A stretch of 64,000 nt of DNA from assembly GCA_900545175.1 (NCBI GenBank), contig UQYF01000005.1:29890-93889 (forward strand). Reading direction: 5' to 3'. Of the stretch, positions 2,536 to 59,348 are shown piece after piece; the stretch's first letter is position 1; each line of letters opens with the position of its first letter. The stretch comes from an uncultured Eubacteriales bacterium. Its GTDB lineage: Bacteria; Bacillota; Clostridia; Lachnospirales; Lachnospiraceae. Below the pieces are notes generated by a model that was given only the letters and a program-made list of their open reading frames with translations, searched no databases and had not been told where the DNA came from. Both the position numbers and the translations under genes were made by a program.

Positions 2536-3243
2536 ATGATTATTAATTTCAGATTTATTGCAGAGTCGATACCCAAGCTTTTCGGTGCCATACCGATAAC
2601 TCTGCTTATGGCGTTTGCTTCGGCGGTTATAGGCTGGCTGCTTGGGCTTGGAATTGCGCTTATAAGAAAAAATAAGGTTCCGGTGCTTTCACAGATATTT
2701 GCAGTGTATGTCTCGTTCCTTAGAGGTGTACCTATGATCATACTTTTGTACATATCCTACTATGCACTTCCTAATGTTATTTACAGCTATGGTGTAAGCA
2801 TTGGCAGGGAGATAAATGTGGATTCGGTACCTGCAGTTGCTTATGCTATCATAGCACTGGTGCTTGAGCAGTCGGCATATGCATCGGAGATATTCCGCTC
2901 ATCGCTTGCAGCAGTTGATGAAGGGCAGATGGAAGCAGCATACAGTGTAGGAATGACAAAGACGCAGGCACTTGCAAGAATTGTTCTTCCACAGGCTATG
3001 GCTATAGCACTTCCGAATTTAAGCGGTCTGTTCTTAGGACTTGTAAAGGGAACATCGCTTGCATATTACGTCGGTGTATATGAAATCACAGCCACTGCAA
3101 ATCTTCTTGCCATGCCGGCACTCAACTTTATTGAAGCTTATATAATGACAACTATTATTTATGAAGTTATAAGCTTTATCTTCAATAAAATATTCAGGGT
3201 TGTAGAAAATAATCTTAAAAGGTTCAGGGCGGTGGCAGCATAG
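2536..3243 (+). CDS. Amino-acid ABC transporter permease, second subunit
   Basis: Paralogous to the previous permease (QMEAAYSVGM motif repeated in both). Confidence 0.8.
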   Translation: MIINFRFIAESIPKLFGAIPITLLMAFASAVIGWLLGLGIALIRKNKVPVLSQIFAVYVSFLRGVPMIILLYISYYALPNVIYSYGVSIGREINVDSVPAVAYAIIALVLEQSAYASEIFRSSLAAVDEGQMEAAYSVGMTKTQALARIVLPQAMAIALPNLSGLFLGLVKGTSLAYYVGVYEITATANLLAMPALNFIEAYIMTTIIYEVISFIFNKIFRVVENNLKRFRAVAA

Positions 3244-9446: not shown

Positions 9447-9599
9447 AAATGCTGTGCAGGACTTAAAAATTCAGCTTGACAATTCATATGCGTTTAATTA
9501 TTATTAGTTCATAAAATAAGAGATGCGAAGCATCAATTTTTTATGAGCATGAAGCGAAAGCGGATTGCAGATATCATTGACTATATGAAAAAGCTATGA

Positions 9600-9905
9600 A
9601 GGGAAGAAGTAGATATTTTTAGGAGCCTACAGAGAGCTGCCGGGTGGTGAGAGGCGCACAGGTAACGGAATATTGAATACATCCTAGAGCATTGCACCGA
9701 AAGAAAGATAATTTTTTTAGTAGGCTGTGACGGCAGCACCCGTTATAGTGCAGAGGTATCGATTAAAAGTGTGAAGGATTACTTCTGAAACAGCTTTTGG
9801 TCTGTACTTGGTGAGGCACCGGATGTGAGTTCGGTGTGAAGTAAGGTGGTAACACGTTTATATACGTCCTTACAGTAGTAATCGCTGCTGTAAGGATTTT
9901 TTTAT
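9600..9905 (+). ncRNA. T-box leader riboswitch (likely tyrosine-specific) controlling tyrS
   Basis: Stem-I like region with AGAGAG/GGTGAGAG; candidate specifier loop GAA-UAC-A; T-box-like AAGGTGGTAACACG; terminator TCCTTACAG...CTGTAAGGA plus T7 at about 9868-9905. Confidence 0.55.
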
Positions 9906-37523: not shown

Positions 37524-39560
37524 ATGGGTAAGTCTTTATTTATAGCTGAGAAGCCTAGTGTGGCACAGGAATTTGCCAAGGCATTAAAATATAATACGGT
37601 GCGCCGTGACGGTTATGTAGAATCTGAGGAAGCTGTCGTGACATGGTGTGTAGGACATCTTGTCACGATGAGCTATCCTGAGTGTTATGACCCGGCGCTA
37701 AAAAGATGGAGTCTTGATACACTGCCATTTATTCCGACCGAGTGGAAATATGAGGTCATTGAAGGAGTAAAAAAGCAGTTTGACATTGTATCAGGACTCC
37801 TTAATCGTCCTGATATAGATACTATATATGTATGTACCGACTCAGGACGTGAAGGAGAATACATATATCGTCTTGTGGAGCAGGAAGCGCATGTAGAAGG
37901 AAAAAACAGAAGACGTGTCTGGATAGATTCACAGACAGAGGAGGAGATTCTTAGAGGAATCAGGGAAGCGAAGGATTTGTCAGAGTATGACAGCCTTGCC
38001 GATGCAGCATATCTGCGTGCAAAGGAAGACTACCTTATGGGAATCAATTTTTCGCGCGTGCTCACTTTAAAATACGGAAATACAATCTCTAACTATTTGA
38101 AGTTACAGAAAAATACCGTGATTGCTGTAGGCCGCGTTATGACATGTGTGCAGGGAATGATTGTAAGACGTGAGCGTGAGATAAGACAGTTTGTCGAGAC
38201 TCCTTTTTACAGAGTGTTAGCAAAATGCAGCCTTGGAAACAGCTCATTTGAAGCGGAGTGGAGAGCGGTTGAAGGTTCAGAATATTTTGCGTCACCCAAG
38301 CTTTACAAGGAGAACGGCTTTAACAAAGAGGAGGATGCGAAAGCTCTGATAGAGCTTATGTCAGGGATGAAGATGCCCGACAATGCCAGAAATCTAAGCC
38401 TGATTCCTCCGTCAGAGGCTGTCATTACCGGACTTGAAAAGAAGAAGGAGAATAAGAGTGCTCCTTTGTTGTTCAACCTTGCCGAGCTGCAGAATGAATG
38501 TTCAAGGCTCTTTAAGATAAGCCCCGATGAGACGCTTAAGATAACCCAGGAGCTGTATGAGAAGAAGCTTGTGACTTATCCTCGAACTGATGCGAGAGTG
38601 TTATCGACGGCTGTAGCCAAGGAAATACATAAGAATATAGGCGGGCTTAAGAATTATGAACCTGCGGCGGGATTTGCTGCCGAGATACTATCAAATGACA
38701 GCTATAAAAGCATAGCAAAGACAAAGTATACGAATGATAAGCAGATTACAGACCATTATGCGATTATTCCTACAGGGCAGACAGGTGCAGTGCGAGGTCT
38801 GTCAGCTATGGCTGCGAAGGTCTATGAAACCATTGTAAAAAGATTTCTTGCGATATTTTACCCTCCGGCTGTATATCAGAAGGTTGCAATAGTTATGAAA
38901 AAAGATACAGAAAGCCTTTTTTCAAGCTTCAAAGTGCTTATATCCGAGGGCTACTACAAGGTGGCAGGAGTGCCTGCTTCGCAGAATAAGACAGGTAAAG
39001 CAAATGATGATGAGACTGAGGATGTGAAATGCGATGCAGCTATGCTTGAGCTTTTGCAGAAGTTAAAAAAAGGGGATATGGTTCCGGTTAACGAATTTTT
39101 TGTAAAGGAAGGAAAGACAGCGGCACCTAAAAGGTATAATTCCGGTTCAATAATACTTGCAATGGAGAATGCGGGACAGCTCATAGAGGATGAGGAGCTA
39201 CGAGCGCAGATAAAGGGAAGCGGAATAGGAACAAGTGCGACAAGAGCGGAAATTTTAAAAAAGCTTATTGACAAAGGATATATAAAGCTAAATAACAAGA
39301 CGCAGATTATTACACCTACTCTGTTAGGTGAGATGATATATGATGTTGTCGCAGCTTCAATAAAATATCTTTTAGACCCGACTCTCACGGCAAGCTGGGA
39401 GAAGGGGCTTACAGGTGTTGCTGATGCAAGCATATCATGTCAGGAATACTTAGATAAGCTTGAAGGGTTTGTTGCTAGAAGAACACTTGCCGTAAAACAA
39501 GTAAGTAACCAGTACATGTTAAGACCTTACTTTGACAGCGCAGCAGCCTTTTACAAATAA
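37524..39560 (+). CDS. topB: DNA topoisomerase III
   Basis: TOPRIM N-terminus (LFIAEKPSVA), type IA topoisomerase domains, ~680 aa. Confidence 0.85.
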   Translation: MGKSLFIAEKPSVAQEFAKALKYNTVRRDGYVESEEAVVTWCVGHLVTMSYPECYDPALKRWSLDTLPFIPTEWKYEVIEGVKKQFDIVSGLLNRPDIDTIYVCTDSGREGEYIYRLVEQEAHVEGKNRRRVWIDSQTEEEILRGIREAKDLSEYDSLADAAYLRAKEDYLMGINFSRVLTLKYGNTISNYLKLQKNTVIAVGRVMTCVQGMIVRREREIRQFVETPFYRVLAKCSLGNSSFEAEWRAVEGSEYFASPKLYKENGFNKEEDAKALIELMSGMKMPDNARNLSLIPPSEAVITGLEKKKENKSAPLLFNLAELQNECSRLFKISPDETLKITQELYEKKLVTYPRTDARVLSTAVAKEIHKNIGGLKNYEPAAGFAAEILSNDSYKSIAKTKYTNDKQITDHYAIIPTGQTGAVRGLSAMAAKVYETIVKRFLAIFYPPAVYQKVAIVMKKDTESLFSSFKVLISEGYYKVAGVPASQNKTGKANDDETEDVKCDAAMLELLQKLKKGDMVPVNEFFVKEGKTAAPKRYNSGSIILAMENAGQLIEDEELRAQIKGSGIGTSATRAEILKKLIDKGYIKLNNKTQIITPTLLGEMIYDVVAASIKYLLDPTLTASWEKGLTGVADASISCQEYLDKLEGFVARRTLAVKQVSNQYMLRPYFDSAAAFYK

Positions 39561-40001
39561 GTGCAAGATATAATGAATGCAGGCGGGTTAACATGCTTGC
39601 ATGATTAACGAGCAATGAAATTATTGAGTGAGCTGTGCTCACGATATAATGAGCGCAAGAGAGCCATAGGGAGCTTGCTCACTTTTGGCGAACGGCGAAT
39701 TGGCTCATGATAGTTGCGAAGCAACGGTAAGCACCGAAGGTGCGAATCATGATATAATGAGCAAAAAAGTCAATATGCCTGTGTATTTATGAACTGAGGA
39801 TTATTGAACAGCATTGTTCATGATATTTTACGATATGGCAAAATGCCAAGAGAAAAACAGATTGTTTTAGATTAGCTGATGTGATAATATACTTAGATAG
39901 GTTATAAGATTTTTACCGGATGGGTATTATAATTGATTTGTGCGAAGCAGATAGTATAAAATCAGGTTCTGTTTTGGTTTAACACGGAAATGAGGAGTAT
40001 T

Positions 40002-40670
40002 ATGTCAGATGAGTTGAAGATAGACAGATTATACAATCTTGATGAGACGATTGCAGCTAAGCTGTTCGTTGGACTTGAATATCCATGGCAGGCGCTGCCG
40101 CTTATTGGTGATTTTATCAAGGAGCTTGGAAGAACGCTTGATAAGACTGAATATGATGAGGTTTCTGAGAACGTATGGATAGCAAAGAGTGCTGCGGTGG
40201 CACCTACAGCGTACATTAACGGACCTTGTATTATAGGAAAGAACTCAGAAATACGGCATTGTGCGTTTATCAGAGGGAATGCTATTGTGGGCGAGGGCGC
40301 TGTCGTTGGCAATTCAACAGAGCTTAAGAATGTTGTTCTTTTTAACAAAGTGCAGGTGCCTCATTATAACTATGTCGGTGATTCGATTCTAGGGTATAAG
40401 TCACATATGGGAGCAGGCTCGATAACATCTAATGTAAAGTCCGATAAGGCGCTTGTCAAAGTAAAATGTAATGGCGATGTCTTAGAGACAGGACTTAAAA
40501 AGTTCGGAGCAATGATAGGAGATAATGTGGAAGTCGGTTGCGGCTGTGTTCTTAATCCGGGAACGGTTATAGGCCGCAGAAGCAATATTTACCCGCTGTC
40601 ATCGGTTAGAGGCTATGTCGCAGAGAACAGCATATACAAAAAACAGGGTGAAGTGGTTGAAAAACGATAA
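40002..40670 (+). CDS. Left-handed beta-helix (hexapeptide-repeat) protein, GlmU C-terminal/acyltransferase-like, function unknown
   Basis: Repeated [LIV]G-x4 hexapeptides (IIGKNSEI, IVGEGAVVGNSTEL, IGDNVEVGCGCVLNPGTVIG). Confidence 0.6.
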   Translation: MSDELKIDRLYNLDETIAAKLFVGLEYPWQALPLIGDFIKELGRTLDKTEYDEVSENVWIAKSAAVAPTAYINGPCIIGKNSEIRHCAFIRGNAIVGEGAVVGNSTELKNVVLFNKVQVPHYNYVGDSILGYKSHMGAGSITSNVKSDKALVKVKCNGDVLETGLKKFGAMIGDNVEVGCGCVLNPGTVIGRRSNIYPLSSVRGYVAENSIYKKQGEVVEKR

Positions 40671-58949: not shown

Positions 58950-59320
58950 GTCTACCAGTTGGCTGAATAATCGCGGCTGCATATGTCGAAAGACCGCAGG
59001 TGAGGAAAGTCCGGGCTTCATAGGGCAGGATGCCGGATAACGTCCGGTGGAGGTGACTCTAAGACCAGTGCAACAGAAATATACCGCCACAGGCGTAATG
59101 CCGAGGCTCCGCAAGGACGTGGTAAGGGCGGAAGGGCAGTGTAAGAGACTACCGCCTGTCTGGTAACAGACAGGGCACATGTAAACTCCATCCGAAGCAA
59201 GACCGAATAAGAGACAGTGACGTGGCCCGCCAGTCTCAGGTTGGTCGCTTGAACCTGTTGGCAACAGCAGGTCTAGATAGATGATTATTCACGACATAAC
59301 CCGGCTTACAGGCTGACTGG
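58950..59320 (+). ncRNA. rnpB: RNase P RNA (bacterial type B)
   Basis: GAGGAAAGTCCGGGCTTCATAGGGCAGGATGCCGGATAACGTCCGG (P4 5' strand) ... AGGGCGGAAGGGCAG ... ACATAACCCGGCTTACAGG (P4 3' strand); P1 pairing of CCAGTTGGCTG with CAGGCTGACTGG. Confidence 0.85.
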
Positions 59321-59348
59321 TGGTTATTTACCAATAGGAGATTTTTCG

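Follow-up and report, generated by a model that had tools for sequence, protein, structure and literature searches.

A motif-dense block downstream of topB is probably a decaying array of a dispersed modular repeat of gut Clostridia

What occupies the 441 nt between topB and the LbH gene, a gap crowded with TATAAT-containing motifs and small hairpins, was the question raised by this locus. In the window, i.e., the whole 64,000-nt stretch of DNA that was analyzed, the topB stop codon lies at 39558-39560, and the true LbH start is the ATG at 40002, which follows a GAGGAG ribosome-binding site; close homologs are all 222 amino acids long, and the mechanically called ORF begins upstream of this ATG, at 39990. 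A first-pass annotation made from the sequence had described the gap as free of ORFs, and no credible ORF was found inside it. The same annotation had offered several readings of the block, namely, tandem promoter/terminator units that might be small RNAs, a degenerate repeat array, and a multisite operator. The repeat array was borne out: two to three units, all from one dispersed repeat family, follow each other in tandem in the block. The explanation that we consider likely is that the block is a dispersed, cotranscribed modular repeat that was inserted after topB, is now decaying, and can carry a promoter.

Three exact copies of GATATAATGA were present in the 64-kb window, at 39567, 39643, and 39751, all on the + strand and within a span of 194 nt, compared with an expected count of 0.30. 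The 12-mer GATATAATGAGC was exact at 39643 and 39751, and the 15-mer motif, at three or fewer mismatches, occurred at 39564, 39640, and 39748 on the + strand and at 39637 on the - strand. Six or more motif copies had been claimed at first pass; those in the areas of 39567, 39643, and 39749 stand, whereas the sequences at 39599, 39704, and 39820 are real but are, respectively, the 3' arm of the hairpin in the first unit (unit A), the 5' arm of the closing stem of a three-way junction, and a decayed terminal motif. The hairpins GTGAGC-TGT-GCTCAC (39628-39642) and GCACC-GAA-GGTGC (39731-39743) were exact as described, and a further perfect hairpin, GTTGC-GAA-GCAAC at 39713-39725, was absent from the earlier description. 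Tandem Repeats Finder reported nothing in the block because the units are unequal in length and content. The element at 39651-39687 that had been taken for a terminator turned out to be the core hairpin of the second unit (unit B); its TTTT is not kept in relatives, and a terminator scan found no terminator-like sites in 39400-40100. With no terminators predicted in the block, small-RNA units made of a promoter and a terminator were not supported.

Comparison with related genomes showed the origin of the extra length. The topB and LbH genes were adjacent in most of 80 related genomes, with a gap that was usually 12 to 130 nt and that reached about 1.9 kb in L001, L003, and L006. In the nearest species by LbH protein (L001, L002, L088, and L092; 88 to 92% identical), the sequence from the TAA to ...AAACAGATTGTTTTAG took 12 to 20 nt, so that the shared AGATTGTTTTAG promoter region was reached 12 to 20 nt past the stop codon, and the window was about 290 nt longer there; only 39853-39905 of the window was alignable with these species. 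Because the sister species are without the block and the topB-LbH gap is 12 to 130 nt in dozens of relatives, the block is, on this comparison, an insertion of about 290 nt after the topB stop in this lineage. The insert corresponds to the repeat array at 39561-39852 (+ strand; ends within 6 nt on either side), between the topB stop and the ancestral intergenic sequence. The latter, at 39853-40001 (+ strand), lies outside the repeat, aligns to L002, L092, L001, and L088, and holds the LbH ribosome-binding site as well as a promoter-like site at 39862-39890 (TTGTTT at 39862-39867, a spacing of 17 nt, and TGTGA-TAATAT at 39880-39890, assigned from consensus and conservation). Sister species without the block still keep this LbH promoter; neither a clear target duplication nor a TATAAT target was seen in their empty sites. 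Contigs of the same species keep the block with 0 to 7 substitutions, a divergence equal to that of the flanking genes. At first pass, a lack of conservation of the motif copies in relatives had been named among the findings that would refute the proposed readings; the copies are in fact not conserved in the corresponding intergenic region, but the cause is insertion, not chance.

Two further features of the region were observed. In L001 (894-2720) and L003 (1635-3486), glmS, encoding glutamine-fructose-6-phosphate aminotransferase, lies between topB and LbH, downstream of the shared promoter region; this placement in two close relatives hints that the LbH protein acts in amino-sugar metabolism. 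A degraded glmS was rejected as the origin of the block, with tblastn giving no similarity. In addition, independent metagenome assemblies of the same species broke within the block: L086 and L097 start at 39645, L087 and L098 start at 39705, and L099 starts at 39733. Positions 39645 and 39705 are module boundaries, and the breaks there are therefore as expected if the modules recur elsewhere in the sample; the repeat breaks metagenome assemblies at predictable points. Together with a core variant of the window that recurs unchanged at the unrelated locus L160, these breaks hint indirectly at several copies per genome.

The first matches to the family came from a low-stringency blastn comparison of the window block with a phage collection, in which five unverified "Bacteriophage sp." gut contigs were found to carry tandem units of about 82 nt, each starting with TGATATAATGAGCGCAAG and containing GCGAACGGCGAA. 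A strict 26-base search pattern built from these two strings was carried by at least 120 human-gut metagenome contigs, in which highly similar copies occurred at many unrelated loci, and by 4 IMG/VR contigs. When a covariance model of the unit core (R1) was run on the window, it scored 76.4 bits at 39640-39703, 22.2 bits (E = 0.005) at 39564-39619, and 18 bits at 39748-39797; the rest of the 64-kb window gave nothing else at E < 0.1, even with the filters off, so that the window has one array only. The same model found no match in 567 kb around LbH in 82 related genomes. Among the matches listed, the neighboring genes fell into 47 downstream and 32 upstream protein clusters. Their Pfam names included adenylosuccinate synthetase (purA), GGDEF, DUF6044, Y-family polymerase, radical SAM, PrmA, RuvA, UvrC, AAA ATPase, and GH53 hydrolase, with ruvA/B also represented, and no functional class was common to the downstream genes listed, as one would expect for a riboswitch or a gene-specific cis-regulatory leader. 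The arrays sit between ORFs, and with core hairpins of 24 to 29 nt, the lengths exclude a conserved reading frame. Read from metagenome contigs, the family is accordingly described here as a dispersed modular intergenic repeat of human-gut Clostridia.

Searches for a known counterpart were negative within the sources covered. No Rfam 15 family matched the block when the whole window was scanned at gathering thresholds, and for the block and two canonical arrays searched at E values up to 10, the best subthreshold scores were 14 to 23 bits against thresholds of 35 to 48, with traJ-II the best match at 22.6 bits of the 40 required. Thus, the Rfam scan that the first-pass annotation had suggested yielded no family at threshold for the block. 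The annotated plasmid collection gave no real match, the phage collection gave unannotated gut contigs only, a full-text literature search for two conserved core strings returned no relevant match, and the first 200 of the 408 supplement files of a gut structured-RNA survey contained none. In the window scan, a T-box leader (110 bits) was recorded at 9587-9874 and a bacterial RNase P RNA of class A (291 bits) at 58955-59324. Several neighbors of repeat units elsewhere were also recorded. On two IMG/VR contigs, RAGATH-8 (L105, 3573-3849) and RT-17 (L106, 985-1074) RNAs, which are typical of mobile-element neighborhoods, lie a few kilobases from units; on L105, a putative tyrosine-recombinase-like ORF, recognized by reading the sequence, follows the unit on the opposite strand. 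On L115, a CRISPR-like array (2586-3160; 36-nt repeat GCTGTAGTTCCCGGTTATTACTTGGTATGTTATAAT, period of about 66) lies some 170 nt past a repeat unit, which is placed in the would-be CRISPR leader.

Each unit consists, in order, of a T-R-T-G-A-TATAAT boundary motif (extended form, T-R-T-G-A-TATAAT-GAGC), a core, and a further element, either a hairpin or a three-way junction, whose end is again GATATAAT. Units are about 60 to 120 nt long and all have one orientation within an array. The core comprises GAGCGCAAGnGAG, a variable hairpin of 24 to 29 nt that often has a CUUG loop, and then CGAACGGCGAA, so that two near-invariant purine-rich strands flank a covarying hairpin; this invariance was partly imposed by the search pattern, which required those strings, and the more distant copies (L102, L103, and unit A of the window) differ in the flanks at a few positions. 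In 80 first units among the matches listed, the five bases before an invariant TATAAT were T in 48, R in 77, T in 71, G in 68, and A in 71, and the sequence upstream of the boundary motif was unrelated among loci. The second module is of several kinds: a simple hairpin, GAUCAUGA...UCAUGAU (HPa); AUUAUUGA-GUGAGC-UrU-GCUCAC-GAUAUAAU (HPb); or a three-way junction closed by GAUCAUGAU/AUCAUGAU and containing two 5-bp hairpins. Each of these ends in the next GAUAUAAU. In addition, there is a "type-2" module, which is longer but has a junction of the same design.

The array of the window follows this plan on the + strand, with a degenerate unit (39564-39650) upstream of an intact unit B that, with its junction and terminal motif, extends over 39640-39762. 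The degenerate core of unit A (39564-39619; R1, 22.2 bits, E = 0.0046) contains the boundary motif CAAGATATAATGAAT and then the hairpin GTTAA-CATG-CTTG-CATG-A-TTAAC (39587-39609), which has the family architecture with GUUAA/UUAAC in place of GCCAA/UUGGC; in strain L096, the substitution T39598C converts a G.U pair of this hairpin to G-C. Unit A is closed by an HPb module, ATTATTGA-GTGAGC-TGT-GCTCAC-GATATAAT (39620-39650; inverted repeat I3), which bears the next boundary motif and has near-identical counterparts in L100, L101, L172, L138, and others. The intact core of unit B (39640-39703; R1, 76.4 bits, E = 5e-15) is made up of the boundary motif CACGATATAATGAGC, GCGCAAGAGAG, a hairpin with a CUUG loop (39663-39689), of which an identical variant occurs at the unrelated locus L160, and CGAACGGCGAA. 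It is followed by a three-way-junction module (39700-39757) whose closing stem pairs 39705-39711 with 39746-39752 around the hairpins at 39713-39725 and 39731-39743, and by a terminal boundary motif, CATGATATAATGAGC, that matches the consensus exactly (39748-39762) and within which TGATATAAT (39750-39758) is an extended -10-like box facing LbH. The remainder, 39763-39852, is a decayed tail with an HPb-like ATTATTGAACAGCATTGTTCATGATATTTT at 39800-39829, a partial R1 match (39748-39797, 18 bits), and a small hairpin, TGGCA-AAA-TGCCA, that was read directly from the sequence at 39836-39848.

Base pairing in the units was maintained by compensatory change. Core hairpin variants included CAUG/CAUG, UAUG/CAUA, CACG/CGUG, and UGUG/CACA, as well as GCCAA/UUGGC versus GUUAA/UUAAC. 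Among 24 distinct three-way junctions, 99.1% of the cells were paired, five pairs were changed on both sides, and 28 cells carried double changes, compared with 8.0 +/- 2.3 in shuffles. One-sided changes that kept a standard pair accounted for nine cells, all of them G.U on the folding strand, where the other strand would give A.C mismatches; the fold is strand specific, on the sense strand of the neighboring genes. The fold energies of the two strands were dominated by loop bonuses and did not discriminate between them.

These observations bear on the proposal that the block is a multisite operator, i.e., a cluster of protein-binding sites, or a set of tandem promoters that belongs to the topB-LbH region alone. 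The recurrence of the motif at spacings of 76 and 108 nt, with a TATAAT core, is in its favor, but the motif lacks palindromic symmetry, and none of the genes adjoining the block encodes a regulator. Furthermore, units lie beside dozens of unrelated genes and are present or absent among close relatives, the block is missing from the same intergenic region of sister species that keep the LbH promoter, and what was seen was covariation of base pairs, not conserved palindromic binding sites. An operator of this kind is therefore very hard to credit.

Several other structural candidates were rejected. A pseudoknot between GCAAG and the CUUG loop was dismissed since the loop varies (CUAG, CUGG, UUUA, and GAA) with no compensating change. 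An alternative-pairing attenuator through TATAATGAGC/GCTCATGATA (I4 and I7) was dismissed since it is not conserved and strain L096 breaks one of the pairings; the GCTCAT at 39703, which pairs with the ATGAGC of the motif, is specific to the window, strain L096 having an A at 39704 and most family members having GATCAT, with A where the pairing requires C. A small peptide starting at the ATG of the motif was rejected for lack of a ribosome-binding site and because unit lengths are not multiples of three; a hammerhead or other known ribozyme in the three-way junction was rejected in view of the missing CUGAUGA/GAAA core and the missing Rfam match; and type III toxin-antitoxin repeats were rejected since no toxin gene follows and the downstream genes differ.

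Loci that share flanks but differ in unit number revealed how arrays change. L169 has one core where L159 has core, three-way junction, and core; L119 has one core and L145 has two; L100 has two core units and L144 has one; and a type-2 unit present in L138 is missing in L161. In every pair, the loci differed by one complete unit flanked by GATATAAT copies. At some loci, the array ended directly after a core, with no right-end hairpin. Arrays also mark synteny breakpoints: in some cases, what follows a given upstream gene differs from contig to contig, and the change of partner falls exactly at the array (L112 versus L101; L132 versus L123 versus L100). The arrays may be sites of ectopic recombination.

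Orientation was strongly biased. Among the matches listed, the downstream gene was on the same strand as the array in 76 cases and on the opposite strand in 9 (about 90%), the corresponding ratio for the upstream gene was 73:19, and only 1 of 65 arrays was antisense to both neighbors. Among 58 loci of at least 5 kb, GC skew on the folding strand, a noisy proxy over 5 to 14 kb, was positive at 47 and clearly negative at 10, where the array still faced the downstream gene. Because these 10 loci follow the downstream gene, a constraint linked to transcription fits the sequences better than an insertion bias linked to replication. In 18 of the 59 unique contexts among the matches listed, the upstream stop codon, which belonged to a codirectional ORF, lay in or abutted the first motif, and this was the only overlap with an ORF. 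Several upstream proteins end in ...MI, read from ATGATATAA. At the left junctions of L163, L175, L128, L218, and L222, RuvA, a sigma factor, and others end in ...MI or ...L through the TAA in TATAAT; use of this TAA as the stop implies that the insertion replaced the original C-terminal codons or stop.

The exact gain and loss of units between direct GATATAAT copies, together with the lack of inverted terminal repeats and the strand-specific folding, is also what would be expected of nonautonomous single-stranded DNA elements that resemble REP-RAYT or IS200/IS605 derivatives, depend on an HUH/Y1-type enzyme acting in trans on hairpins of one DNA strand, and insert beside a GATATAAT-like site. 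Each unit would then end in its own target, which would lead to tandem arrays. The TGATAT sequence may be likened to CTTG/ATA, at which rolling-circle Rep proteins nick DNA. The recurrent triloops GCGAAGC and CCGAAGG are textbook examples of mini-hairpins that are exceptionally stable as DNA, and the hairpin fold of the family could therefore matter in DNA rather than RNA. Triloops of this C-GAA-G type are best known in single-stranded DNA, from initiation signals and phage origins (PMC13037366). However, a tblastn search of 876 kb of flanks, from 128 loci, with two IS200-type TnpA sequences detected no transposase or other mobilizing gene, the single match being a 19-residue fragment in L181. 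In addition, at 10 of the 58 loci the folding strand is the C-rich one and the array is oriented with the downstream gene, which speaks against a bias tied strictly to the replication strand, given the noise in local skew; the sister empty sites have no TATAAT target; and some arrays stop after the core. Single-stranded DNA transposition is, on balance, a rather improbable account of the family. A miniature inverted-repeat element (MITE) moved by a DDE transposase was rejected, since the ends are direct, not inverted, GATATAAT copies and there is no clear target duplication relative to the empty sites.

The capacity of the repeat to carry a promoter, a part of the preferred reading, was suggested by the boundary motif, which by its sequence fits the Gram-positive sigma-A extended -10 consensus TRTGnTATAAT. 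The "tandem promoter units" of the first-pass annotation are thus upheld as regards the promoter consensus, but not as regards the terminators. Among the motifs of the window, only the third carries the TG (39750-39758). In about 20 of the 46 unique downstream genes among the matches listed, the terminal hexamer precedes the start codon by 18 to 48 nt, as a -10 box would if the leader were short. No -35 enrichment was seen upstream of the boundary motif of first units; this is compatible with extended -10 promoters, though it is not proof of them. At L107, L129, L142, and L183, direct reading showed a G+C hairpin and a T run just upstream of the array, and between this terminator-like element and the next gene, nothing but the boundary motif resembles a promoter. 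At L149 and L109, the array ends only 10 to 20 nt before the ribosome-binding site, given also as 10 to 18 nt before the start codon, so that it must be part of the 5' untranslated region there and be transcribed. From these features, we infer that transcription of the downstream gene can start from the boundary motifs without the help of a -35 element. In the window, TGATATAAT at 39750-39758 could provide a second, upstream start for LbH; the effect of the array on LbH is probably small because the conserved promoter of LbH itself is still in place, 100 nt downstream.

Placement in a 5' untranslated region at L149 and L109, the strong bias toward the orientation of the downstream gene, the covariation of pairs, and the conservation of single-stranded segments would also be consistent with a functional cis-acting RNA leader or a small-RNA array that has been recruited as a regulon and has a partner in trans, for instance a regulatory or antitermination protein or an enzyme that processes RNA. 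The arrays at L105 and L101, which have a promoter-like box on one side and an intrinsic terminator on the other, as do stand-alone RNA genes, point in the same direction. Against this, the downstream genes have no common function, units are present or absent, or vary in number, among close strains at a single locus, and no Rfam family was reached at threshold (Clostridiales-1, 14 bits versus 48; traJ-II, 22.6 versus 40). Moreover, no switch-like alternative pairing is conserved, GCTCAT/ATGAGC being broken in L096, with most members carrying A at that position. A dedicated RNA leader was accordingly judged improbable, slightly more so than transposition of single-stranded DNA.

Under the reading that we prefer, that of a decaying, cotranscribed modular repeat, two to three units would have been inserted just past the topB stop codon in this lineage and would since have partly decayed. 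Units are gained and lost singly at the boundary motifs, and arrays lie between genes that are usually codirectional, often starting from the upstream stop codon and facing the downstream gene. The array would be cotranscribed with its neighbors, its RNA presumably folding without terminating transcription, and the boundary motifs would serve as promoters that are independent of a -35 element. A bolder proposal is that the family is a self-propagating mobile cassette, in which a promoter that needs no -35 element is fused to a folded leader module, and that it spreads to positions beside GATATAAT-like sites through single-stranded DNA or template switching, a mechanism that would be new for Clostridia and that possibly depends on an unrecognized trans-acting enzyme. 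We regard this as unlikely, if somewhat less so than the two accounts weighed above; if true, the cassette would rewire transcription and seed synteny breakpoints across gut Firmicutes.

For the locus itself, the consequence is modest, with LbH retaining its own promoter and the array partly decayed. For the family, the promoter consensus at the boundaries, together with the facing of the downstream gene in about 90% of cases, could explain promoter turnover and strain-level differences in expression in gut commensals. In well-studied pathogens, dispersed repeats of the BOX, REP, and Correia types influence how operons are expressed, how stable mRNAs are, and how genomes rearrange. Rfam 15, the annotated plasmid and phage collections, and the two-string full-text search yielded no comparable family from the dominant Clostridia of the gut.

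Among known systems, Clostridiales-1 RNA (RF01699) shares with the repeat its occurrence in Clostridiales and the human gut, a multistem structure, a long hairpin with a GCUUGC loop, and independence of any gene class. It was the only family that weakly matched both the window unit and L106, at 14.2 and 12.5 bits, compared with a gathering threshold of 48 (E of about 2.7), but its outer closing stem is missing in the block, which is not a member; the resemblance may reflect a distant relationship or coincidence. The subthreshold sites were at 39645-39754 in the window and at 4389-4420 in L106. The BOX elements of Streptococcus pneumoniae are short, modular, noncoding intergenic repeats of the form boxA-boxB(n)-boxC with a variable number of modules; their transcripts are predicted to form stable stem-loops, they can influence the expression of neighboring genes, and no enzyme is known to mobilize them. 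The gut family has in common with them its short, modular, intergenic form and variable internal units, but it shows no sequence similarity to them and differs in its extended -10 boundaries, three-way junction, strong downstream bias, and gut Clostridia hosts.

REP/BIME and REPIN elements with RAYT, in enterobacteria and Pseudomonas, are, like the gut family, extragenic hairpins in mosaic tandem arrangements; they often lie within operons just past stop codons, are cotranscribed, and have neither terminal inverted repeats nor target duplications. REPs are imperfect palindromes of 20 to 40 nt in alternating orientation with a conserved GTAG, whereas the units of the gut family are 60 to 120 nt long and lie in one orientation, and the tblastn search of the flanks found no RAYT-like gene near the copies. 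Correia elements of Neisseria are dispersed repeats, transcribed as structured RNA, that bring promoter boxes to unrelated genes, as the gut family may do; their ends are inverted repeats and their insertion duplicates a TA, neither of which is seen in the gut family. Highly similar upstream sequences before nonhomologous genes have been described as "putative mobile promoters" (Matus-Garcia et al., 2012; PMC3488235), and the gut family likewise places near-identical sequence ahead of genes that are not homologous. In comparison with BOX, REP/BIME, Correia elements, and mobile promoters, the gut repeat is a familiar kind of element, whereas the family itself appears to be new.
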